Shown in pieces: positions 1 to 61,090 of a stretch of DNA of 64,000 nucleotides (position 1 is its first letter; each line of letters starts with the position of its first letter). Below the pieces are notes generated by a model. The model had not been told where the DNA came from, did no database searches, and worked only from the letters and a program-made list of their open reading frames with translations. Location of the stretch: positions 14,335,454 through 14,399,453 of the forward strand of contig JAHRHZ010000267.1 in NCBI GenBank assembly GCA_024137785.1. Direction: 5' to 3'. The stretch comes from Ginglymostoma cirratum (lineage: Eukaryota). Both the position numbers and the translations under genes were made by a program.

Positions 1-794
1 TTTTTTTAAGGGGTATGGTTGAAGGAGCAAGCTCCAGCAGGACAACCTGACATTCTGTGTCTTAAACTCTTCTACAACATTTGAGCTACTGTGGTCAAGA
101 TAGATTGTTATCTTTTTGTACACATTTTGGACATATATCTCAAAATGTTCAGTAATAGTCAAAATGTTCAAAATGAGCCATGAATAATCCAATGGTAACC
201 TTCCCTACTGTGGAGTACAATCTTTGATGTATGTTTAGATTTTTGAAGAAGTATCCAATTAGTTTCTTTATTCCAGATTTGTATTCCTGCAGGACAACAG
301 CCCCTACCCTGATGTCATCTCTAGTGACGGATACTTTAAAAATTCTTGGTTAGAATTAGAAACTGAAAGCTCAGGATAGCTTGTTAAAATGCTCTTCAGC
401 TGTTCAAAAGCATTTTGACATTGCTCATTCTATAGCACATTCATTTTTTGTAGTAAGTCTGTCAGCGCACAGCTACTGTATTAAAGTTTAGGATGAATAT
501 TTGACAAACTTTAAGTAAGAAGGAGCAAACCATGCATTCTCCCCACGGGATTAAGTGCAGTAATAATGCCCAATGTCTGGTGAATTTAGACATTTGAAAT
601 ATAAAAATAGCTTCTACATCTGCATCCTCAAACTTTGAAATTGTGACCAAATTGAGTTGCCTCCACCCTCAAATCTGAGCTAGTAACGTTTTCATGGAAA
701 ACATTGGGAATCCTGCTTCTCAGCTTGAGCCATCTTACTTCCAGCTCCGTTTCCATCAGTTCTTCATGAAACTCTCTTTTCTTTCTGTTCTTTG

Positions 795-828
795 CTCTCT
801 CTCTCTCTCTGATCTCTCTCCTTCTCTT
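795..828 (+). repeat. (CT)n microsatellite
   Basis: ctctctctctctctctgatctctctccttctctt. Confidence 0.75.
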
Positions 829-1559
829 TATCTGGAAATTCCAACTTCCACTGCTCCAATTTTAATTTATCCACTGCTGCAGTTGCAGTTTCATCGTGCA
901 CCGATTTCATCTATAAACCATTCGATATCTCATTTAAAATTTTAGATTTTCTAGCTCTTGGGAAAAGTTCCAATCCTTTTAACTATTTGAGGGACAGAAC
1001 ATATGAATCCTCAAAAATAACTTCCCTTACTTCTGCTAGGAGCACTCTGGCATCAAATGCAGACATTTCTATCCTGTAGCAATGCAAAATCAAGCTAAAT
1101 TTTGCAATACTTTTGCAATTAATTTCAAGGTGATAATTTATATTACAATTCTTTTGTTTCATCTATGCATTCAAATCGCAGCAAGAGCCCACAGTTTATT
1201 ATAACCAGACTCTGGATGAGATTCCCAATTCTTTGCAATTCCAGTTGGGATACCCCAAAATTGTTTTAGCTATTAGATGGTGAGGGATGAACTGGATCTA
1301 TTTCTTTATTCACCCACCCCTTTTGTTGGTTGCATCAACGTTCAATTAAAAAAATTTCTTGCTTCCACATCCAAATGTATTTTAAAAGGAACCAATTTAA
1401 CCAGGCTCTCTTGAATTAAGAAAAAGATTGAGATCAATAATTACTAAATGCAAGAAGAATTTGTAACATAGCGCACATCGACACAGATTACATATGTTGG
1501 TGAGTTCAAAAATGTTTTTTAGAAATGTTTAAACAAAACTGTTGTAGGGATCAGTCTTT

Positions 1560-2345
1560 GAATTGTTCTCTCACTTTGAAGGAGATAGTTTAACATTGCA
1601 TTTGTTCCCGGTAGTGTTGACATTGTTCACTGAACAGTCAGCCTTGCTTTCCTCAGTTTTGCATGTTGCATGAAATTCTGTAGTTCTGATTCCTTTTGAC
1701 TGTGATTGAATTCCAGTATTTGGCCTAATTTACTTTTTCATATGAATTGGGGCACTCTCGGAGAAGGTCATTCCCTGTACCACAGGATGGCGAGGGTGTC
1801 GTTCTTTGACTGTGATCACCACAGCATACTATTGCAAACTGGTACACTCAAGAGCATTCATACCCATGAGCACTCTTTAGTAGAGTTGGAGCTGGCTTTT
1901 TAACCCTAACCTTTGTGTATTCTTCAAGAGGAAAAACATAGACTATGCTTGCAGTTTTTGACATAGTCCACAGGGTGTGGCTTGCTATTGAGCCCCTTGT
2001 TATCCTTGTTATCAAGAGAACACGGTCCAGTCCATTTTAAGTTTCTTTGATGTTACGTCCCATCAGTTCCAAATAGAATTGTTTGCACCAGTCACTTTGT
2101 AGCTGTAATTGTCCCGTTTTAAGTAACGCATTTTGAAATTTATAACCGAAAACACCCATTGCATTTCAGGGTTCTAACACATCATTGCAACACTGGTCAC
2201 AATGGTTCTGGTCAAAGTATAACAGATCAACCTTGAGAATATCCTCAACTTCCTAGTCTAGAGCATCAATATCTAGATAAGGGATCATCTTGGTCTTTGT
2301 ATGGGTTGGGTAATCTGTCGAGCATGTCAGAAATAATAGACTTAA
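1560..2345 (-). mobile_element. Highly decayed Gypsy-like pol fragment (RNase H end / integrase)
   Basis: Weak minus-strand motifs: ISDMLDRLPNP, CGLCQKLQ, PNSYE...TVKRNQ (resembling PRSY...RRNR). Confidence 0.3.
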
Positions 2346-2940
2346 ATAACCAGAACTAACCTTCATGCCCTCTTTTTGCTCGGTCTCAAAGGTCTCCATA
2401 GCAGTCAAGTATCACAATCTATGGCCTTCACTTTCCATAGGCAATAGTCAATGTGGCACAGAAAGATGGACTTTTTCTGGGTGTCGTTGAAATGTTTGCT
2501 TTGTACCCTCCCATTCTATTTACCAGGGAGCAGATCTCCATACATTTCAGTCTTGAGCTGGTCACTGTCATTCACCCAGGAAACATGCTATACCAGTGTA
2601 ATTGCTTTTGTGGGAGGATGGTCTCAATCCTGCTGATGTTGGCTGTTTCCAGGAGTTTGACACTTGTGATGTGGTCCTGCCAGCTAATCTTGTAGATGCA
2701 GTGGAGGAAATACTCTAAAGGAAATCCATGTCAGTGGTTTCTGGACTCATAATTTGGTGCCATCCAAAAGGGGAATGAGGAATGCAACTTTGTATGGTTT
2801 TGGTGCTTGGTCTGTATTACGAGGGTCTACTTGTGCTACACTCATTTTAGAGCTAGGCCAAATGCAATATTTACTTTTGAAAACCAATTGTCTACTTTCC
2901 TCTCTATAGTGGCATCAAAATCAGTGACATTCCCCAAATA

Positions 2941-3471
2941 ACAAGCATGGGGCTGGATGAACACAGCAGGTCAAGCAGCATCATNNNNNNNNNNNNNNNN
3001 NNNNNNNNNNNNNNNNNNNNNNNNNNNNNNNNNNNNNNNNNNNNNNNNNNNNNNNNNNNNNNNNNNNNNNNNNNNNNNNNNNNNNNNNNNNNNNNNNNNN
3101 NNNNNNNNNNNNNNNNNNNNNNNNNNNNNNNNNNNNNNNNNNNNNNNNNNNNNNNNNNNNNNNNNNNNNNNNNNNNNNNNNNNNNNNNNNNNNNNNNNNN
3201 NNNNNNNNNNNNNNNNNNNNNNNNNNNNNNNNNNNNNNNNNNNNNNNNNNNNNNNNNNNNNNNNNNNNNNNNNNNNNNNNNNNNNNNNNNNNNNNNNNNN
3301 NNNNNNNNNNNNNNNNNNNNNNNNNNNNNNNNNNNNNNNNNNNNNNNNNNNNNNNNNNNNNNNNNNNNNNNNNNNNNNNNNNNNATGATGCTGCTTGACC
3401 TGCTGTGTTCATCCAGCCCCATGCTTGTTATCTCGGATTCTCCAGCATCTGCAGTACCTTTTATCTCTGAT
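2941..3471 (+). mobile_element. Young Penelope-like element with inverted-repeat arms, centre hidden by a 400-N gap
   Basis: The left arm 2938-2984 is the perfect reverse complement of the start of the right arm (3385 onward). A direct repeat ACATTCCCCAAATA at 2927-2940 and 3472-3485 is the TSD. Arms are nearly identical to those at 59811-60430. Confidence 0.85.
2985..3384. other. Assembly gap (400 N)
   Basis: Run of exactly 400 N. Confidence 0.99.
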
Positions 3472-3600
3472 ACATTCCCCAAATAGGTAACTTGCTTGGC
3501 AGAATTCAGCTCAGATCTTTTAATGTCCATGGTTGGTGGTTTATATTTGTCTTGGTGTTCAGGCTGATGCTGGAGCTCAATTTTCTCTGATTTTTTCTTC

Positions 3601-4520
3601 TGTGAAGGGTTGTGGTGCCTCAGAAAAATTTTGTATTTCAGGTACAAGTGATTTATATATATTGATTGGATTTCAGACTAGTGGCATATGGGTTTTAGTT
3701 TGTGTTTTACGAAGAGATTTAAAATTAGCTAGGTCAGTCTTTCTGGAAACATGATTTTAAACCATTATGTTTCATGAAGCAGGAGACTCCTGGATGGATA
3801 ATATAAATTTGTTTATGTTGTGGGCTTTTACAACAAGAGGGGGAAAATATTGAAAGACATTAGTTAATTTTTAAGTTTAGTATAATCAAGAATTGATTTG
3901 AACATAGAAGAACCCAGAGACTGGAAAGCTTTTGAGGTCAGTTTGAAGGAGAACTGACTAAAGTCAGATGCAAGATTTTAGTATCTCCCAGAAAGGGGGT
4001 TGTTCAGAACAGTTAAGGGAGTAAAGTTACCTCAGAGAAAGAGTTTAGTGTATGAAACGTCTAGACTAAGGGTGTTTGATTGGAACTCTACAGATTATCA
4101 AAAGACTGTATAAGCCTAAGATCTCAGATGTGTGAATATTCAAAAGAAAAATGTTGATAGCTCACTGGACCAGGCCGAAGGAAATCTGTTAAGGGAAGCA
4201 TACAGATTTGATAAAGAAGGAATTCCTCTGGATTTTGATTACTTCTAAAGTATATTGGGGATGATATTGGGGAGTGAATGAGACTTTGTTTTGCCACACG
4301 TTCCTATTATATGTAGATGGCTTGGTTTATTTTATTTATTTTATTTATTTGGTGTAATGAACTTCATTTTTATTGTTAAATTCAAACATGCAGTCTGGCT
4401 TGCTTATATTTTAGAAAGATTACAATGTTAAACAAAACATACACAATAAAAGCACTATCAAACCAGATTTCATTCTGGGCTCTGATGTACTTAGTAGCAA
4501 TGGCAATTGCGATCATTACA
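3601..4520 (+). mobile_element. Solo LTR (family A)
   Basis: TGTGAAG...CATTACA termini, AATAAA near the 3' end (~4445). It interrupts the RTE reading frame, and both ends are homologous to the copies at 6027-6970 and 15565-16436. No clean TSD. Confidence 0.65.
4326..4350 (+). repeat. (TTTA/TTTTA)n microsatellite
   Basis: tttatttttatttattttatttattt. Confidence 0.7.
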
Positions 4521-6026
4521 TGGCCTGACTGACTGTGGGCCAGGAGGACACACTCAGTCATCAGGGATAAAATTTATGGATGAGATTATCCTGCGTCTTG
4601 GTGTCAGTCCAAAGATGCCCACGATTGAAAATCTATTGGAAAGCGCATGTCAACTCTGTAAGATCTTCTGTTGCTTGCTGCAACATTATATTGAACATAG
4701 TGAGTAGGAGTCAGCACCAGTACATATTTCTGATTCATACTATTGCTTATTTGAAAAAGATTAGAGAGGGCATTGTTGACTGTGCTTCATCACAGCCAGG
4801 AACATGGGTACACATTCAAGTTAAGGATTTCCCTAAATCTATCTATGCTCAGTGCTGAAAGCCTTGATGAGGTCAACAAAAATGACATGCAGGCCCTTGT
4901 TTTGGTTGGCACTTTTCTTGTAATTGTCTGATCATCTCTGTTTGCTCTGAAACTGCACAGAATCTAACATCTATTTCTATAACAGTGGGCACAAGCCTGT
5001 TGAGAAATATCCTTGCCAGGATCCTGCCAGCAGTGGAAAGGAAGCTGATCACATTTTAGTCAGTTTAATTTGAATATTCTCCTTTGTTTTTGTATGAGAT
5101 AATGTAAGAAGCATCACAATGATTGTGATTTCCTGTGCTGTACCAATCAGACCATGAAAACCATGTAGGATCAGGCCATCATGCTTCAAGGTTTCATGTG
5201 GAATTGTATTGCCTTGAGAGTTTTTTTTTCTCATCATCTGGTTGATAGTGGTCTAGATTTGGGCTCTCATTGAGCTGTTGGTAATCTGTGGTTGGATGTA
5301 ATTGGTGGCATTAGAAAGCACTGCACACTTGGCATTGAAGAGTGTTTCAAAGAGCTCAGACCAATTATCCAGGACTAACTCTCCATCAGCACCCAATACC
5401 TTACTATCAGCACAGGGTTTTTGCTTTGATATGCTGGTCCATCCGTGGACAGATTTCAGTACTTCACAGAAACGTCTTAATTTAATTGTATGCTGATACT
5501 GGTCCTATATTTCCACAAGTATGACTTGCCATTTTGAATGTTCTTCAGTTTACATTGAAACATGCTGAATGCTTGACTGTAGGCTATTTTATTACTCTTA
5601 CCTAAATGGTTCAGTCAGGTAAACTTGATAAGTTTATCTCTTTATCCCCAGTAGATCTTGGATTGCCTTGTCATTTTCATCAAAGTGTTTCCTGTTCTTG
5701 ACGTTGAATCTAATGACCCTGGATTCAGATCTATAGACTTATACAGCTATCTATATCTTAGAAACAGATACCACTTGACTCTTCTTTTGTTAGAGTTCTA
5801 TGTTATCCAAAAGCTAGTGTCCAGTTAATCTTCAACTGGTTTTCCCAACATCCACCACCAAGATATCAAAGTCTATCAAGACATTGCAAATCTGGTGTGA
5901 GTCTGCCTCCAGCAGGGCATTTTACCTGTTATGACTCTGATTTTTATCTCCTGCACCATAAAAAATCTGGGAGCAGGTAGTATGGTATTGAAGGATTTAA
6001 CAGACATATATGATAATAATTATGTG

Positions 6027-9660: not shown

Positions 9661-9820
9661 GATATAAAACAAAGGGCTGCGGATACTGAAGATCTGAACC
9701 AAGTTAAAGTAAAACTTGCTGGAGAAATTCACAGGTCTGGCAGCATTTATGGAGAGAAAGCAGAGTTAACAATTCAATCTCCAGTGGCCCTACTTCAGAA
9801 CTATGAGCTTCAGAATAATT
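9661..9820 (-). mobile_element. Older Penelope-type short element with a degenerate hammerhead
   Basis: Homologous to 57607-57802. The minus strand reads GTT-CTGAAGT-A-GGGCC-ACTG-GAGATTGAATTGTTAAC. Candidate TSD TAACAGAAT at 9652-9660 and 9821-9829. Confidence 0.65.
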
Positions 9821-13879: not shown

Positions 13880-15098
13880 GGTTAGCAAGGTTGGATCATA
13901 AGGAATAGAGGGAGAAGTATCCATTTGGATACAGGACTGGCTCAAAGGTAGGAGACATAGGGTGGTGATGGAGGGTTACTTTTCAGCCTGGAGGCCTGTG
14001 ACCAGCAGTGTGTCACAAGGATCGGTGGTGGGTCCACTGATTTTTGTCATTTATATAAATGAATTGGATGTGAACATAGGAGGTATGGTTAGTAAGTTTG
14101 CAGGTGACACCAAAATTGGTGGTGTAGTGGACAGTGAAGAAGGTTAATGCAGAGTACAATGGGATCTTAATCAGATGAGCCAATGGGCCGAGGGGTGACA
14201 GATGGAGTTTAATTTAGATAAATGTGGGGCACTGCATTTTGGAAAGGCATATCAGGGCAGGACTTTTACATTTAATGGTGAGGTCTCAGGGAGGTTCCTT
14301 GAAAGCAGAGTCCCAGATAGATAGGAAAGTGAAGAAGGCATTTGGTGTGCTTGCCTTTACTGGTCAGCGCGTTCAGTATAGGAGTTGGGAGGTCATGTTG
14401 CACTGTACATTGGTTGGGCTGCTATTGGAATACTCCATGCAGTTCTGGTCTCCCTGTTATAGGAAAGACGTTGTGAAACTTGAAAGGGTTCAGAAAATAT
14501 TTACAAGGATGTTGCCAATGTTAGAGGGTTTGAGCTATATGGAGAGGCTGAATAGACTGGGGTTATTTTCCCTGGAGCATCTGAGGCTGAGGGGCAACCT
14601 TATAGAGGTTTATAAAATCATGAGGGGAATGGATAGGGTAAGTAGACAAGGTTTTTTTTCCCAGGGTGTGGGAGTCCAAAACTAGAGGGCGTAGGTTTAA
14701 GGCGAGAGGGGAAAGATTTAAAAGGGACCTAAGGGATAACATTTTCATGCAGAGGATGGTGCATGTATGGAATGAGCTGTCACAGGAAGTGGTAGAGGCA
14801 GGTACAATTGCAACATTTAAAAGGCATCTGGATGGGTATTTTTTTTCTGAAGAATGGTCCTGACCCGAAATGTCAGCTTTCCTGCTCCTCTTATGCTGCC
14901 TGGCCTGCAGTGTTCCTCCAGCTCCACATTCTGACTCCAGCATCGACAGTTCTTACTATGTCTGGATGGATTTATGAATAGTTTAGGGGGACGCAAAATG
15001 CTGGCAAATAAGATTAGATTTATTTCGGATATGTAGTTAACATGGATGAGTTGGACTGAAGCATCTGTTTCCGTGTTGTATATCTCTATGACTCTATG
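13880..15098 (+). mobile_element. CR1 LINE, 5'-truncated ORF2 RT and 3' UTR, carrying a Penelope-type insertion
   Basis: SSVSQGSVVGPLIFVIYINELD...SKFAGDTKIGG; LEYSMQFWSPCYRKDVVKLERVQKIFTRMLP; terminal (CTCTATGA)-type repeats. Confidence 0.95.
14840..14960 (+). mobile_element. Short Penelope-type element with a hammerhead at its 5' end
   Basis: CTGAAGA-A-TGGTC-CT-GACCC-GAAA-TGTC at 14847-14874. TSD TCTGGATGGGTAT (14827-14839) / TCTGGATGGATTT (14961-14973) inside the CR1. Confidence 0.85.
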
Positions 15099-16436: not shown

Positions 16437-17465
16437 CTGGGAAAAGCTAATCTCCTCTCCTTCTCATGCATCATCATCAACTGCTTTTACATCCACTCCC
16501 AGTATACTAAACTCATCCTGTCGTTTCATTACAGGAAAAATTAGCCCACACTCTGGATTGGAATTGGATAATTCTCTTGGCTGACTGTGATGATACCCCT
16601 TGACCTTGATGATGTATCATTCACCTTGATCTCACTAAAGAGTGCCCCCCTTTGATTTTCAGACATGGCCAATTAGTTGAATAGATGCCATGTGTTTAGC
16701 ACACAGCCTGCTGGCACATGCTCTGGATGTAATGTTGACATTTCTGAACAACAGCATGGTCGCCTCTTTGACTTTACGGTACTCCAAACTGTGACAAGCT
16801 GCCTACTTCTCACTCTGTAGGCAGCAAAAATAAGTGAGTGTTAAGAAAGCAAGCTAAGAGCTGTAAGTGGCCTGGGAGTAACATATAAATCATAAGTGTT
16901 CCTGCATGTCAAAGTGAACTCCAGAATAGCTGAACTGGTGTTTGATTTTGCCCAAAAGCAGGTATTATGATGTGGTGGTTCGGTAATGCTGACTTGCTTG
17001 GATGAAGGGTGGAAGACGATAGTACCTATGGTGCATGCAGGGATATTGTGGTAAAGGTGGAGTTGGATGATGGACCAGAGAAACATGCAGTGAGCTGCTG
17101 TTGCTCTGACTTTCATAATGGGAGCTGACACCATCTAGTTTCTTGGGGAAGGCAGGAGAATTGGGAGCCACATAGAAACGAGATGAGATTAGATAAAAAT
17201 GAGAGAAGATGTAATGGAAATCAGGTGATCACCACTAAACTGTGAGATTCAGAACTTGCCATTTAAATCTTAATTGGACAATCAAAAATCTTTTTCTTGA
17301 TATGAAGAAACTGATTTTTGAATGTTTGCCATATTACCCCAACTTTCTTGCCATTGCCCACACCGCTCAAGAAAGTGGAAAATTCCAGCCTCTGTTGTTC
17401 TTTATCTCCTTCCTATAAATCCTTTTTTATTTTGCTTTTTGCACATGACAACACTAATTGATGCT

Positions 17466-17612
17466 AATCATTAATCATTTTCTGAAGAAGGGTCTCGACC
17501 CGAAACGTCAGCTTTCCTGCTTCTCTGATGCTGCTTGGCCTGCTGTGTTCATCCAGCTCTACACCTTGTTGTCTCAGATTCTCCAGCATCTGCAGTTCCT
17601 ACAATCTCTGTA
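17466..17612 (+). mobile_element. Short Penelope-type element with an intact hammerhead core
   Basis: Perfect 13-bp TSD ACTAATTGATGCT (17453-17465, 17613-17625). Body homologous to 3385-3470 and 60336-60430. Confidence 0.9.
17478..17512 (+). ncRNA. Minimal type I hammerhead ribozyme (Penelope-associated)
   Basis: CUGAAGA (17482-88), extra A, stem II GGGUC/GACCC, GAAA, palindromic ACGU in place of stem III, GUC cleavage triplet (17507-09). Activity not shown. Confidence 0.75.
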
Positions 17613-19904
17613 ACTAATTGATGCTTCCAGGTTTACCCTTCCCGGATTAGACACCGTAAAACTCAGCAAGAAATTTGCAATCTGGTTGAAGTGCCCTGTC
17701 GTTTATTGCCCTGGGCAAGAATGCCACAGATTCCTGTTGAGATGCTGTACTATATCAGTCTTAGAATAAGAGCCCACTCAAAAACCCAGGATGATTCAAA
17801 TGGCAGCATCAGCAAGGTAAATGTTGAACAACATTCCTTCACCACTGACCACAAAATCTGGGTAAATCATGTTTCCATACTGAATAACAAAGTTATTCTG
17901 AAATAATTTACAGATGAAAGTTATCAAAAAGCAGATTATACACTATTTAAACATTCTGTAGTCTAAGTACCTGAAGGTTTTCCTGATTGATGCATTGTGC
18001 CTTTTTTAAACCTCCAAATAAAACCTTTTGACACTTACTGCCACATATCCTCCTTCTTTGAAGGAGGAGACACATTTAGAGCCAAAGATTTCTCAACAGT
18101 CTCATCAATCTTGGTCTGCGATAAACCAGCAGGAGATGCCTGTCAGTTAACAGAATAAGTCCTGTTAGTTATTCCCTCCCCTGTCCCACTGAGACGGACT
18201 GCTGTATTCATGAACAGTTTCATCCTGAATTAACAAGGTCTCCTCCAAGGTGTGCTGCTTAGTTCAGTCTACATAGAAGGTTTAAAACTCGCTTCTCCAA
18301 ATAAAAAATTGTTAGATTCAGCAGCCTTACCGGTCAATGTGAAATATATATTTTAAAAACGTTCCTTCTTCAAAACTGGAACCTTAGTCTTTTTTCACCA
18401 AACTTTCCTTTAAGTTTCTTCCAGGTACTTTAGAATGCGTATGTCAATGTTTTAAGAAACTTGTCAAAAGAACCAGAGGTAAGGCGAGGAGCAAGCTAAA
18501 TGTATTGCCAAATGAATGATGGGAGGAAGTTTGATAATAGCATCCCAAATGGAAAGGGTTAACTATTTGAAAGGGAAAAGGTCGTGTTTGTCTAAGGAAA
18601 GAGAGGTTAAAGTTACTAATTAGATAGTTATTTTTCAACGAGATGGCATATACATAAAAGTTCGAATGGCATCCTTTTTTGCAATATTATTCTGTGATTG
18701 GTTGCAAAAGAATGTGAAGGTGGATGAAGAATAGGGAAAAGAGAGTAGAAAAATGAGAGAAACAAAAAGGAGAAAGAAAAACACGTTGCAGAGTATTAAG
18801 TGAATGAGGAATCAAAAGTCAAAGTAAACCAAGAGACACCATGAATCAAAAGGAAACATACTGTAAAAAGAGACAGAGACATTGAACACATAAGTATGAG
18901 AGCAAGAACTACTTATGAAACCTGTGTTAGTTAACCTATTGAAGACAACATCATAAACCAAATACCAAAAATAATTTTGATAGTAGTTCAATATTTTTAA
19001 ACCCTATGCCATAACACAAGTCACCTGGAAATCAGAAATTAAACAAGAGCTTTTCTCCTAATTGAATTCCTACCAGCAGTGTCAAAGGATCCATGATCCC
19101 TCTTTCCTTGCTGCGTGTTTAATTACTTGTCCAATGATAATGACATGTGTGTGTGCGTGGCCCCTCCTGAGTTGACAGGAGGACAACAAATGGCAACTAA
19201 AACATTCACATCTCTCCCCATGGGGTCCTCAGTACAGCTGCCCTTCTGCTTGTTGCTTCTCTGCACACACGCACATTCACAGATGGCCCAGCTTGCAGTG
19301 GACACGGATTTTGATCATATCCTTCTCTGTATATATAAAAAAAAGAGCTTACTGTAGCAAAGCATCTGTACCTTTGCCAATATTTATTTGGCAACACTGC
19401 CGGTTTGAACAAAAAAAATTCCTGATGTGTTAATTTCCAGAACCAAAGGGGAGGCTGTTCAAGCTTGAACAGTACAATAGTAGAATTTGCAATGTGCAAT
19501 TGTAGCCTCAAATTGTTAATCACGCATCGTTCAGTCAGCAGCTTCCATCATCTGGCATGAGTTTAATTTAACATCTTGTGAGTGGGTGTGCATGTGTATT
19601 TGTGCAAACAAATGAGTTAACCCACAGTATTTTTTGAATACCAAGATATGGCAATAATTATGTATTACAACAGAGGCCTGTAAATCAATTAGTTGTAGGT
19701 AATCAATGTTTTATATTGCTTTATCCTTTGTGAAATTGCAGAAGCATGTTGTCTTCCTAAATCTCAGTCCCTACTCTGTTTTGAAATTGATCACAGAACA
19801 CAACTCGTGCACTCTATTCTTATGTACATTATTTTCCTCTCTTCCTCATGCAAGATCTGATCCTCCTCTCCTGAATGCAATGATTTGTGTCAATGTGTAA
19901 AGAA

Positions 19905-29265: not shown

Positions 29266-31479
29266 TCAAATTCTAACATCCCGCCTTCTCATCTCCACTC
29301 TGAACATTCTGTATTCAACTTAGTTCTCAGTTGTATTTTCTACAAACCAACTGTCATAAGCGCACTTTCTCTTCTTTACCTTAATTATTTTTCTATTTAT
29401 GGCATCGGGGGAGCTCTGGCTTTGTACTACTTTTCTATTTTAAGAAAATGTACCTTGATTGTGTCTGAAATTCCTCTTTTTCAAACATGGCCCATTGTTC
29501 AGCCCTGATCTGATCTCACCCTATTTTTGTTGTTTCTGGATCTGAGGGTCTACAAAGGGTTAATACTGAGAAGTGCCATGAGCACCATCCACACTAAGTA
29601 TTTTATAAGGTTAGAACAGCTTACGATCTTGAAGGAGTGAGATTAAACATTGGGATCTTTTCAAAGTCTCTGGTGGAATCTTATACGGGTTCTAAATGAT
29701 ATGGGATCTGGTGGGAAATCTGGGACATTCAAGTCCAGCAAGCCTTTCACGACGTCAGGAGCAACATGTCGCATTTTCCACCAGAGTTGAGATGAGATTT
29801 TCATTAGGGAATGGTGAGGTGCCTGTAAAAGGACTATTGCTGATCGTCATGCTGAGTTGCACCTCACTAATATCAGGACATACTCCAAGGCTGTGGCCAC
29901 ATGCACCTCATGTTCATGGTCATTGCAGACTTGTACCAGCTGCTTGATACCATCGTTGCACATCTCCAACTGTCTTAAAGTATACATCTGCACAGTGATG
30001 CTACATTCTGGGCAGAGGAGCATCATTCAGTGCAACACTGCTGGAAGAGTGCTTTGTCACAGAGTCAGGCACCCAAATCACAGATTGGGCCAGGCTGTAT
30101 ATCTCATTTGCTCTCTTAGCACTTACTCGGTTTCTACCCACCTGGTTGCCCATAGTATCATTGCCTTTCGCTGCCCCGCCTTGCCATACCTTTTAGTGCT
30201 TTGTCTCCTGAGCCAGAGCATAAAGACTCTGTTTTACAAGCTTGATTCTCAGTGCAGACACAGCACCAGGCAGTGTCTGGTCTTGGTCAGCAATTATTGG
30301 TCTTAAAGGTCTGACACAACTGCGAGCACTGCATTCTATTTAACCTTTAGGCATTAGTTTATTGTCTGCATTGCTGCTCCATGTTGCAGAGTGGGAAGTA
30401 AGCTACTGCTACTGGACTGTGTATGGGCAATGGGGAAATTGTAGCTGATCATTACCTTGGCAGTTGTGTTCTAACTTTCCAAACAAACAGGCATTGCTAT
30501 TGCATCATAGCTTTAATGGGGTTTGCTCCTTATCCTGCATGAAATGATCAGGGGCGTTTGTGGCAAGGAGCAGCAATGTGCATGATATAGTAATGATGAA
30601 GGATCACACAGAATGCAGCTCTGGAATGTCCTGTGAGGAGACTACTGTGGGAGCCTGTGCATGGCTGCTCCTCTAGTTGGGTGCCTACTGGCACCACCCT
30701 GTCTCCTTGTGAGGAAGGCACACTTGGAGTGGGATCAAAGTTTGTCACCCTGCTGTTGCCTTGCAGTTGGTGCTGAAGTCCAATGACTAGAGCAATAGAG
30801 GATAGGCTCGTGCCTATCCAGCAGATCCTGGGACTGCCAGACCTGGCCTTCTGACAAACCTGCCATCTGCTCTAGTGTCAGCTTGTGTGTACTGATATTG
30901 ATTGATGGTTGATTGTTGACACCACAGGGTCCTCTCATGCCTGTGGCTGAGCCGATACCTGGTCTCTGGCAGCCATCCGAATGCCAGGGGTCTGGGGCAT
31001 TTCTTTCTCAACCAGATGTGAAAACATGGCATTGAAGCGTTCACCAGTAGGTTTACCCAACTCTAACCTAGAAAACATACCACTAAAATGTCAATATCTG
31101 AGTTGGCGGGGGAGTACAGCCTTGCTGGAATTTTCCCTGAGACATCCATGTTCTCTTCCTCAGAGGTGGGAAAAGCAGTCTCTTGTGGCATGGCCTTCTG
31201 GACCATGGCTACTGTGAACAAGACACCAAAGAAAGAATCTAGTTACTAAGTGACTAAGGCAAATGGGACTAGTCCATTTCAGGAAACCTGGTCAGCATGG
31301 ATGAGTTGGGCCAAAGGGTCAGTTTCTGCGCTGTATGACTCAATGACTCTGGAAATTGTGAGATATTAAGGAGAAATTCACATTGGGATAATGGAGAACT
31401 AGCATAACAATGGAAATTGCTTCTTACTTGATTGTTTGGACATGAATGTTTCAATGTGCCCACAAGAGCAGTTCTGGCC

Positions 31480-37403: not shown

Positions 37404-37948
37404 ATAGAGTCAAACAGCACAGAAACAGACCCTTCAGTCAAACTCATCCATGCAACCAAGTTTCCCAAACTAAACTATTCCCATTTGCCTACGTTTAGCC
37501 CATATCCCTCTAAACCTTACCTATACATGTCTATGTCCAAATGTCTTTTAAATGTTGTAACTGTATCTGCATCTATTACTTGCTCCGGCAGTTCATTCTA
37601 CATAGAAATCACCCTCTGTATAAAAACATTGCCCATCAAGTTGCCTTTAAATCTTGCTTCTCTCACCTGAAAATTACCCGTTGTTGTTTTGAACTCCCCC
37701 ACCCTAGGGAAAAGGCCTTTGCTATTCATCTTATCGATGTCCCTCATGGTTTTATAAGCCTCTATAAGGTCACCCCTCATCTACCTTTCCTCCAGTGAAA
37801 AAGGTCGCAGCCTATCCAGCCTCAGTGTATAACTCCAATCTTCCAGTCCCAGTCACATCCTTAGAAATCTCTTCTGCTCCCTCTCCAGTTTAATAATATC
37901 CTTCCTTTAACAGGGCAACCAGAACTGTACGCAATATTCCAGAAGTGG
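37404..37948 (-). mobile_element. CR1 LINE 3' fragment
   Basis: MRGDLIEAYKTMRDIDKMNSKGLFPRVGEFKT; highly similar to 45370-45915. Confidence 0.92.
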
Positions 37949-45069: not shown

Positions 45070-45918
45070 CACTTGGGTCAATAGTCTGAGGAATGGCAGA
45101 TGGAGTTTAATTTGGGTAAATGTAAGGTGTTGCTTTTTGGTAAAACAAACAAAAGCAGGACTTATACAATTAATGGTAGGGCCCTGGGTAGTGTTGTAAA
45201 ACTGAGGGGCCTAGAGGTTCAAGTACATAATTCTTTGAAATTTGCATTGCAGGTAGGTAGGGTGGTTAAGAAGGCATTTAGCACACTTGTCTTCATTGAT
45301 CAGATCTTTGAGTATATGAGTTGGGATGTAATGTTGAGGTTGTGCAGGACGTTAGTGAGGCCTTTTCTGGAGTACTGTATGCAGTTCTGGTTGCTATGTT
45401 ACAGAAAGGATATTATTAAGTTGGAGAGGGTTCAGAAAAGATTTACCAGCATCTTGCCAGGAATGGAGGGTTTGACTTATGAAAATAAGCTGGATAGGCT
45501 GGGACTTTTTTCACTGGAGTTTAGGAGGTCGCGAGGTGACCTTATAGTGTTTTATAAAATCATGAGGGACATAGATAAGGTGAATAGTAAAGGTCTTTTC
45601 GCTAATGTGGAGGAGTTCAAAACTAGATGGCATATTTTTAAGGTAAGAAGAGAAAGATTTAGAAAGAAGACTAGGGGTAATTTTTTCACATAGAGAGTGG
45701 TTCGTGTGAGAAATGAACTGCCAGAGAAAGTGGTGGATGCAGCAAGAGTTACAACATTTAAAAGACATTTGGATAAGTTCATGAATAGGAAAGGTTTGGA
45801 GGGATATGGGCAACCGGAGGCAGGTGGGACTAGTTTAGTTTGAGAACATGGTCAGCATGGACTAGTTGGACCTAAAGGTCTGTTTCCACAATATATGACT
45901 TGATGACTCTATGGCTCT
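45070..45918 (+). mobile_element. CR1 LINE, 5'-truncated ORF2 C-terminus and 3' UTR
   Basis: 197-aa ORF 45100-45693: MEFNLGKCKVL...LVRPFLEYCMQFW...RGDLIVFYKIM; terminal TGACTCTATG repeats. Confidence 0.95.
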
Positions 45919-57499: not shown

Positions 57500-57945
57500 A
57501 CACAGAATCTTTGAATCTCTACAGTGTGGAAAGGAGCCATTCAGCCCATTGAGTCCAATCAGCCCATCGAGTCTGCACCAACACTCCCAACAGCACCCCA
57601 CCCAGAACAAAAACAGAAGTAGCTGGAAAAGCTCAGCAGACCTGGCAGTGTCTGTGAAGGAAAAATAAGAGTTAACATTTCAGGTCCAGTGACCCTTCCT
57701 CAGAACCTCTGTTCACAAATGCTGCCAGACCTGTTGAGCTTTTCCAGTTTTTCTGCTTTTGTTCCTGATTTACAGCATCCCTAGTTCTTTTGGATATTAT
57801 TTAGCACCCTACCCAGACCCAACCTGCTACGCTATCCCTGTAACTCCGTATTTAGCATGGTTAATCCACCTAGCCTGCACATCCCTGGATACTATGGACA
57901 ATTTAGCATGGCCAATCCACCTAACCTGCACATCTTAGACACTCT
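57500..57945 (-). mobile_element. HE1-type V-SINE 3' part, interrupted by a Penelope-type element
   Basis: Matches 32605-32810 on both sides of 57607-57802. Confidence 0.85.
57607..57802. mobile_element. Fully assembled inverted-repeat Penelope-type element (second subfamily) with a minus-strand hammerhead
   Basis: Arms 57607-57652 and ~57712-57765 are imperfect reverse complements. Minus 57706-57671 reads GUU-CUGAGGA-A-GGGUC-ACUG-GACCU-GAAA-UG-UU-AAC. TSD AGCACCC(C/T)ACCCAGA at 57592-57606 and 57803-57817. Confidence 0.85.
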
Positions 57946-59070: not shown

Positions 59071-59916
59071 TTGAAGCACAGCTCCAGGCTGACTGTGCTT
59101 GTCCAGATGCACAACAAGCTTTTTAAAGGTGACCCTGGCATCAAGGATGCCAGTCAATTCCAGGATTTTTGATAAGTGGCATGTTGTTCAGGAAACATTG
59201 CTTGGCAGGATGGGAGTAGAATTGGACAAAAGAGACACCAGGGTGCAGGGTAATTATTTGATAATGCAGCATTGATAAAGACAAGATGGGAAAAGCCTCT
59301 CAGCCTTGTGGCAAAATATCCTCCAAAAACCTTGACACAACTCAAATGTAGCCAAAAACAAAGATTTGGCCAGTTATATTTAAACTTTTCATTTATTCTT
59401 TCCACCTTTGTTTTCGCTAACTGTAACTGTTTTGACATTGAATTCACTTACTCTAATTTCCAATTACTTCTCAATTCTTGCTGTTAAATTTGCAATCTTC
59501 TGATCTAATTGTTAAAGACATACACATGAAACAGGCCAGTTCACTCACATGATCATCTAAGTGCCTGCTTTCCCTTCGCTGTGAGGTTATCAATTCACAA
59601 TGACCTCACAGAAAAAAATTATGGAGTCTAATTGTTTACAATCAATTATGAAGCTTAATTCATGGCAGGTGTTGTTCAATTGCATGTCTTAGTAAGTGAC
59701 AGCTCATTGTCTTCGGTCCTCACTACAAACTGAATTCCCAATCCTGCCAATTGCCTGACCTGGCCAATGTCTGAGACTGAACCAGACTGTTAACTGCGGT
59801 TAAAATTGTATCAGAGATAAAAGGTACTGCAGATGCTGGAGAATCTGAGATAACAAGCATGGGGCTGGATGAACACAGCAGGTCAAGCAGCATCATAGGA
59901 GCAGGAAAACTCAACG

Positions 59917-60316
59917 NNNNNNNNNNNNNNNNNNNNNNNNNNNNNNNNNNNNNNNNNNNNNNNNNNNNNNNNNNNNNNNNNNNNNNNNNNNNNNNNNNNN
60001 NNNNNNNNNNNNNNNNNNNNNNNNNNNNNNNNNNNNNNNNNNNNNNNNNNNNNNNNNNNNNNNNNNNNNNNNNNNNNNNNNNNNNNNNNNNNNNNNNNNN
60101 NNNNNNNNNNNNNNNNNNNNNNNNNNNNNNNNNNNNNNNNNNNNNNNNNNNNNNNNNNNNNNNNNNNNNNNNNNNNNNNNNNNNNNNNNNNNNNNNNNNN
60201 NNNNNNNNNNNNNNNNNNNNNNNNNNNNNNNNNNNNNNNNNNNNNNNNNNNNNNNNNNNNNNNNNNNNNNNNNNNNNNNNNNNNNNNNNNNNNNNNNNNN
60301 NNNNNNNNNNNNNNNN
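59917..60316. other. Assembly gap (400 N)
   Basis: Run of exactly 400 N. Confidence 0.99.
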
Positions 60317-60332
60317 CTCTTCCCCTCCCCCC

Positions 60333-60366
60333 TTTCTGATGAAGGGTTTAGGCCCGAAACGTTGAG
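60333..60366 (+). ncRNA. Minimal type I hammerhead ribozyme (Penelope-associated)
   Basis: CUGAUGA (60336-42), A, stem II GGGU/GCCC with a UUAG loop, GAAA (60356-59), self-complementary AACGUU (60358-63), GUU triplet, short stem I UUU/GAG. Confidence 0.75.
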
Positions 60367-60429
60367 TTTTCCTGCTCCTATGATGCTGCTTGACCTGCTG
60401 TGTTCATCCAGCCCCATGCTTGTTATCTC

Positions 60430-61090
60430 TGTTGACTGTGGTGTCTATTTGATTCTAAACTGCCATTGTCCTCCCCAACTTCAAGACAGTAAACATCCAC
60501 TTCTGTAAAAGTGCCTATTTCAGCCCATCTGATGCTGAAATTCTCTTTCCTGGTTTTGCTGTCTCTAAACTCGACTGCGTTAATTATTTTCTGACTAGCA
60601 TCGCACATTCCACCTTACAAAACTTCAGTTCATCATTCTGCTACCTGTATTCTAGTCCCTGTTCCCCAGCACCCTTGTATGCTCTGACATACATTATTGC
60701 TTGGTCCAGCATCATTTCAATTTTAAAATGATTATTCTTATGCTCAAGTTGTGTCCTGGCCTAACCTTTCCATATCTCTGTTATCTCTGTCAGCCCAATA
60801 TCTGAGATCCCTAACTCTTGCAATTTTGGGTCTAGAATATCCCTGATTGTTACTGTCCCTTTGGGTATGACAATGCCTTCAACTATTTAAACCTTAATTT
60901 TTGAAATTCTCTCCCCATATCATTCACGTGCTCTCTTTGCCCTTTTAAGGTGTTCTTTAAAATCAATGCCTTTGGCCGAACTTTTGGTAATTTGTCCCAA
61001 AATCTCTTTGCATGATATATTGTCAAATCTTGTTTGATCATGCTCCTTTGAAATGCTTTTGTTAAACATGCTATATTGTTGCCTGGCAAC
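60430..61090 (+). mobile_element. L2 LINE 3' fragment
   Basis: DAEILFPGFAVSKLDCVNYFLTSIAHSTLQNF (SRLDYCN motif), then an L2-like 3' UTR ending ...GCTATATTGTTG. Confidence 0.7.

Follow-up and report, generated by a model that had tools for sequence, protein, structure and literature searches.

A fold-back around an assembly gap in Ginglymostoma cirratum DNA, read as a probable truncated Penelope-like insertion

Introduction

Head-to-head pseudo-LTRs (pLTRs) and the assembly trouble that goes with them have been described for Penelope-like elements (PLEs) in PMC3846280, PMC8557442 and PMC8969392. The PLEs of Adineta vaga have inverted pLTRs, a 31-bp tail and a target-site duplication (TSD) of 9–10 bp (PMC3846280). 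For EN+ PLEs, an inverted 5′-truncated copy, a tail of 30–40 bp and difficulties in short-read assembly are reported (PMC8557442). Truncation at the 5′ end is sufficient, alone, to account for PLE ends devoid of an ORF (PMC8557442, PMC8969392). At the biochemical level, the GIY-YIG endonuclease of a PLE cleaves the target on both strands, and the RNA has two internal start sites for reverse transcription, located one tail-length apart (PMC11167929). PLE endonucleases generate target duplications (PMC3846280). The origin of the inverted tailed structure is still called undefined in PMC11167929 and PMC8557442. An expansion of PLEs has been reported in a shark genome (10.1101/443036).

We analysed a window of 64,000 nucleotides of Ginglymostoma cirratum DNA, the whole stretch considered here, in which an earlier note made from the letters alone had drawn attention to a fold-back around an assembly gap (gap 1). 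Our main reading, to which we give a probability of roughly 0.85, is that gap 1 marks the 5′-truncated insertion of an endonuclease-bearing PLE, which took place after the split from a relative diverged by about 4%. Feature coordinates are collected in Table 1.

Table 1. Features of the gap-1 insertion, its sister at gap 2 and older related copies (positions in the window)
Feature	Position	Strand	Remarks
Left copy of the 14-bp TSD, gap 1	2927..2940	+	14/14; last 3 bases (2938-2940) fit the element too
Short tail-less pLTR arm, gap 1	2938..2984	-	points outwards, leftward; 44 bases without the microhomology
Assembly gap 1, nominal 400 N	2985..3384	.	same length as gap 2
Long pLTR arm, part common with the short arm, gap 1	3385..3431	+	reverse complement of 2938-2984
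One-sided extension (tail), gap 1	3432..3471	+	40 bases beyond the inverted match; 43 nt from arm end to arm end
Right copy of the 14-bp TSD, gap 1	3472..3485	+	14/14; first 3 bases fit the element too
Older solo pLTR	14827..14973	+	hammerhead core at 14847; duplication 11/13; inside the 3′ end of a LINE
Older solo pLTR, gap-1 family	17453..17625	+	hammerhead core at 17482; duplication 13/13
Gap-free older fold-back stub, related family	57592..57817	.	duplication 14/15; insert 196 bp
Sister insertion, mirror arrangement	59787..60442	.	same family, around gap 2
Target duplication, gap 2	59787-59800 / 60429-60442	.	12/14 alike
Long arm with 47-nt tail, gap 2	59801-59916	-	left of gap 2
Short arm, gap 2	60317-60428	+	right of gap 2
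Putative minimal type-I hammerhead motif of the family	60333..60366	+	in the gap-2 copy; sequence features

Results

Anatomy of the gap-1 insertion

Gap 1 and gap 2 (59917–60316) both consist of exactly 400 N, and their size is therefore probably nominal. The 47 bases to the left of gap 1 are the exact reverse complement of those to its right, a match with a chance of ~1e-29 as calculated from base composition. The right arm exceeds this inverted match by 40 bases, and ACATTCCCCAAATA is present at both outer junctions. This 14-mer is the only exact duplication of at least 8 bases between 2880–2984 and 3385–3560, and among 20000 random pairs of 60 × 60-bp windows drawn from the whole window, one showed an exact duplication of 14 bases or more. 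The inverted arms, the longer right arm and the 14-bp TSD were all claimed in the earlier note and were recovered here. Its description of a perfect fold-back holds for the 47 visible bases and applies to those only.

As element reference for the gap-1 junctions we used the long arm of the gap-2 copy, which is identical to 3385–3474 at 89 of 90 positions and runs further. Compared with this reference, 3-bp microhomologies are found at both junctions, ATA on the left and ACA on the right, as had been proposed from the sequence, with a joint chance of ~5e-4 from base composition. Because of these microhomologies, the stagger of the cuts at gap 1 could be 8–14 nt. The short arm can be aligned to other copies of the family. 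Mapped onto the gap-2 copy, the inner edge of the long arm (3385) falls at 60380. Upstream of this point, the putative hammerhead cleavage site is 17 bases away and the core start 44; each gap-1 arm is short of the core by these 44 bases. The build is thus that of two head-to-head pLTR ends, the right one tailed, between two copies of the target.

An empty site in a relative

The left flank (400–2926) was used in a word screen, which listed 22 runs. None of these contained half of the words, and none was from the window's own species; the best word shares, 0.17–0.21, all belonged to one relative. Four of the 22 runs (four samples from three studies of this relative, which is ~96% alike) were aligned to 2300–4100. 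Runs X13 and X19–X22, with next to no words of 400–2926, were among the 18 runs left out.

In 4/4 runs of the relative, a single contig joins 2926 to 3472 and skips 545 bases. The joint carries one copy of the 14-mer, which can be assigned to the left or the right flank alike. Differences from the window amount to 25 in 625 bases of the flanks, and to 9–10 in comparisons of 255–289. Since the 14-mer is single and the flanks are joined in the relative, the feature at gap 1 is a true insertion with a target-site duplication, and it is younger than the ~4% split. The empty site was read from contigs of the relative, not from reads, and the filled allele is known from the window's assembly only. 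The single 14-mer is what the earlier note had expected of an empty site. As for its wording 'very recent', the empty site confirms an insertion younger than the ~4% split, which is probably well younger than that. Zero differences in 61 compared bases has P ~0.08 even at 4% pair divergence, one difference in 90 has a 95% range of 0.03–6%, and the TSD of the sister copy contains two mismatches. The insertion can be used as a presence/absence marker between G. cirratum and its relative.

Contig ends and the length of the visible arms

Supernova uses k = 48, and its abutting edges overlap by k–1 (PMC5411770). Both gap-1 contigs terminate on the same 47-mer, the right one going 3 bases beyond its private 48-mers. 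For this reason, the figure of 47 is probably a minimum imposed by the assembler, as at a fork between the element's own two arms. Whichever assembler produced the window, we regard the 47 bp as probably such a k–1 effect, rather than as the true arm length or a measure of age. The contig ends at gap 2 differ from this pattern (70 and 113 bases). Gaps of 400 N may be a Supernova convention. Neither the Supernova paper (PMC5411770), nor its source-code supplement, nor a second paper confirmed it. Gap 1 itself would have arisen because a graph assembler working on short reads is halted by inverted arms that are identical. Gaps of fixed size can then mark young fold-back insertions in assemblies of this kind, which would accordingly be undercounted.

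A more radical view is that only one arm is real and that its reversed copy was made by the assembler or a gap filler. The coincidence of 47 with the edge overlap of Supernova speaks for it, as do the identical size of both gaps and the fact that the filled site is seen in the window's assembly alone. We nevertheless hold this to be very improbable: the target 14-mer occurs at both junctions and is single in the relative, the points at which the two arms end in the element differ by 43 nt, the mirror form is present at gap 2 and the same form, without any gap, at 57592–57817. Moreover, the right contig stops on a 47-mer common to its own left arm, as a local fork would make it do.

Sister insertion and older copies

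Gap 2 lies within a second young insertion of the gap-1 family, in mirror orientation. A match of 12/14, as between its two target copies, was reached by none of 5000 random pairs of 30 × 20-bp windows. In common coordinates the arms end at 44/87 at gap 1 versus 49/96 at gap 2, giving tails of 43 versus 47 nt. The gap-2 arms are identical at 70/70 positions while the duplication is mismatched at 2/14, more than an age of 1% predicts (P ~0.01). Possible reasons for this discrepancy are homogenisation of the arms, collapse of the assembly next to the gap, and a true duplication of shorter length.

Junction duplications of 13–15 bp were present in 5/5 copies examined (matches per copy in Table 1). 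In the gap-free stub, the arms (57605–57658 and 57712–57764) are 81% alike, the tail is of ~38 bp, and there is one hammerhead core only (57703, minus strand); it sits in sequence that looks to us like an HE1-type SINE. The three copies at 14827–14973, 17453–17625 and 57592–57817, out of four with a visible core, start 7–16 nt upstream of it, and the right arm of the gap-2 copy reaches at least 19 nt upstream. Several details accompany these copies. In the solo copy of the gap-1 family, a short filler at 17466–17481, with AATCAT twice, separates the left duplication from the hammerhead core. In the other solo copy (14827–14973), 4 bases are apparently common to the element end and the duplication, as judged by eye. 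A decayed pLTR at 9718–9801 (–) is 74% alike to the 57.6-kb family and has a degraded hammerhead-like end.

In the relative, 4417–5029 contig records were aligned per run, the arms accounting for most of the depth. Loose contig ends behind 2984 continue like the gap-2 copy, towards the hammerhead. Several joints with sides of less than 30 bases, which come from other loci, switch from arm to arm inside the visible arms. These short-sided joints give a weak hint that stubs of the family fold back at many points.

The comparison of copies also bears on a DNA transposon of the MITE or Foldback type with terminal inverted repeats. Such an element would share the inverted sequence at both ends and the flanking duplication, and the family is indeed very abundant in the relative. 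However, a tail of 43–47 nt on one side keeps the repeats from being terminal at both ends, and the ends vary between near-identical copies. The duplications of 13–15 bp, the two solo one-armed copies and the hammerhead motif of the family also argue against it. As the hallmark of this class, fixed terminal inverted repeats with a duplication of fixed length, was not found, we consider a DNA transposon the least probable of the alternatives, with hardly any weight.

The window has a CpG observed/expected ratio of 0.21 and contains what we take to be CR1-type LINE and HE1-type SINE sequences, features that point to a shark or ray as the probable host. LINE 3′ fragments at 13900–14833, 37404–37944, 45079–45910 and 31257–31350, presumably CR1-like, are 70–81% mutually alike with long broken frames, two of which gave no Pfam match. 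Broken frames at 4873–5504 (–), also with no Pfam match, resemble in our opinion a LINE reverse transcriptase (RT) of RTE-like type; because of them, the gap-1 insertion seems to lie amid old repeats. No host exon was recognised near it, and Pfam gave no match for any of 15 frames taken from the flanks and from other places in the window. Unclassified dispersed repeats of 65–80% identity were observed at 6025–6575/15561–16065, 6853–6932/7262–7341 and 8433–8583/46896–47045.

A putative minimal hammerhead in the family

The motif at 60333–60366 is composed of the core CUGAUGA, one bulged A, a 4-bp stem II with G10.1-C11.1, GAAA, a palindromic CG and UU, and matches the minimal-hammerhead features set out in PMC4209133. 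Besides this sister copy, which is 99% identical to the gap-1 copy, three older copies contain the motif; in the gap-1 copy it would lie outside the visible part. We aligned five motifs, four from the window and one from a metagenome contig (L001, see below). The core is invariant except for N7 in 5/5 motifs. Pairing was found for 91% of stem cells, with three double-sided changes in helix I, whereas slid controls reached at most 60%. The observed pair values were equalled by 13–72 of 500 shuffles, for n = 5 and a structure hand-drawn from the same sequences. An Rfam search of the complete window (E ≤ 5) returned no hammerhead and two weak unrelated matches, and for four arm/motif segments the minimum-energy folds did not surpass those of shuffles (z –0.2 to –1.4). 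As judged from its sequence features, the family carries a minimal hammerhead motif, which we call putative.

A search with the hammerhead pattern gave one locus, L001, in a metagenome collection of 241 million records and none in viral contigs; the arm pattern gave none in either. The hammerhead of L001 (549–576, –) is inverted and upstream of an RT frame at 791–2821 (+), whose Pfam RVT_1 match (E 4e-4) is below cut-off. Most of the 93 relatives of this frame carry RVT_1, and many carry PF01541, which we take to be GIY-YIG. Only the 28-bp hammerhead is common to L001 and the window, and therefore this type of motif is tied to PLEs while the gap-1 family itself is not. L001 has the appearance of a broken PLE whose ORF is preceded by an inverted end carrying the hammerhead. 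Among the named relatives of its RT, the closest come from bony fishes. Although filed among metagenomes, it looks, from sequence, like fish host DNA.

Likely contents of gap 1

The 93 PLE-type proteins gave no tblastn match in the window, with L001 positive as control, and no RT or GIY-YIG frame could be linked directly to the gap-1 family. The open frame of 39–40 aa running through the arm had no relatives in either of two protein searches; it is broken in the older 17.5-kb copy, and we rejected it as coding sequence.

In all likelihood the gap-1 copy is a dead stub, a few hundred bases long, such a short content being suggested by the 7–16 nt starts upstream of the core in three of four copies. 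There is a good chance that gap 1 holds at least one hammerhead. Two are somewhat doubtful, and coding sequence is unlikely. The earlier proposal of two opposed hammerheads, possibly with coding sequence, therefore goes beyond the data: the gap-free stub has one core in 196 bp, and none of the 93 proteins gave a tblastn match in the window. Pairs of motifs on opposite strands, 100–700 bp apart, have been reported too, and a same-strand tandem dimer has been proposed for such hammerheads (both PMC4209133). Two cores in gap 1 could not form that dimer, because they would be on opposite strands and facing apart; an RNA transcribed through both would just form one long hairpin.

The lack of ORFs brings in another candidate, a non-autonomous, retrozyme-like hammerhead element consisting of a pLTR only and borrowing PLE enzymes. 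It would insert by the same chemistry, from a template that never had an ORF. All copies in the window are ORF-less ends, three of the four with a visible core having the short starts just mentioned, and in each run of the relative contigs fall on the arms by the thousand. Non-LTR retrozymes have moreover been reported in a chondrichthyan and are argued to derive from PLE pLTRs (10.64898/2026.07.22.740005). These are, however, defined in the same source as tandem repeats with a hammerhead per unit, and self-matches of the window revealed no tandem units outside the gaps. Ends devoid of an ORF are also explained by the 5′ truncation cited above (PMC8557442, PMC8969392). We thus judge a retrozyme-like origin improbable and retain the truncated, endonuclease-bearing PLE.

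Discussion

A possible mechanism of insertion

We lean, if only slightly, towards a route in which staggered nicks are followed by priming on both strands with 3-bp pairing, joining of inward cDNAs and fill-in. The target strands would be nicked up to 14 nt apart. The 3′ end of the bottom strand would prime cDNA at the downstream site and produce the long arm with its tail, and the 3′ end of the top strand would prime at the upstream site and produce the short arm, each priming being aided by 3 bp of pairing. The two cDNAs would extend inwards and then be joined, and fill-in would yield the target duplication. The mechanism resembles the twin priming of L1.

More tentatively, the young copies may record a two-ended ('twin') priming of PLEs in vivo, in which both RNA start sites are used in one event, with nicks about 14 nt apart and steered by pairing. 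If true, the inversion, the one-sided tail and the duplication would arise in a single step, without the antisense self-primed template invoked as an alternative for head-to-head forms (PMC3846280). It would also qualify the claim of homology-free priming, which comes from in vitro experiments where priming was reported at RNA positions that lack homology with the cleaved DNA (PMC11167929). A point against pairing is the gap-2 short arm, with a microhomology of 1 bp only. No paper proposing twin priming for PLEs was found in a literature search that ran without most subscription papers and the PLE reviews of 2005–2006. Young copies whose empty site is known would, taken as a class, allow the origin of the inverted tailed structure to be tested.

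Comparison with known elements

The inverted truncated pLTR, which the earlier note took to be characteristic of Penelope insertions, fits the published PLE structure, as do the one-sided tail and the putative hammerhead motif of the family. An inverted, head-to-head, 5′-truncated pLTR copy is found at gap 1, at gap 2 and in the gap-free stub. These three fold-backs have one-sided tails of 43, 47 and ~38 nt, two of them slightly above the published 30–40 bp. The short and variable TSD of EN+ PLEs is found as well and, as predicted from sequence features, so is their minimal pLTR hammerhead.

Pen2a_Av and Pen2_Av of Adineta vaga show the same head-to-head pLTRs, a tail on one 3′ end, a TSD and assembly failure at inverted structures. 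Their TSDs are of 8–10 bp, compared with 13–15 bp in the window, and the tail of the A. vaga elements is of 31 nt, compared with 43–47 nt; no ORF is visible in the window copies (PMC3846280 for A. vaga). The EN+ PLEs (Penelope/Poseidon, Neptune, Nematis, Naiad) share with the window family the strong 5′ truncation, the adjoining inverted copy, the tail at one end and the pLTR hammerhead (PMC8557442). Since Naiads are described there as devoid of a hammerhead, the putative motif of the window family argues against a Naiad.

With the Poseidon element PAc of Anolis carolinensis (PMC11167929), the family has in common two end points one tail-length apart, a hammerhead upstream of the tail, putative in the window, and, in the route proposed above, the cutting and extension of both strands. 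The ORF of PAc starts at hammerhead stem II, whereas the equivalent ATG of the window family runs into a stop after 8 codons. PAc priming is reported to proceed without homology to the cut DNA, in contrast to the 3-bp homology at both ends of gap 1, and no ATT motif is present at the inferred gap-1 nicks.

The minimal hammerheads of metazoan PLEs (PMC4209133) have the same core, an unpaired base between 9 and 10.1, G10.1-C11.1, a palindromic 15.2-16.2 and no helix III. Helix II is of 4 bp and helix I of 2–3 bp in the window family, around a putative cleavage site, compared with 7–8 and 4–5 bp in Schistosoma according to the same source. Taken together, the head-to-head pLTRs, the one-sided tail, the duplication and the trouble for short-read assembly are all features already described, and the gap-1 locus is best seen as an ordinary case, one more truncated Penelope-like insertion.
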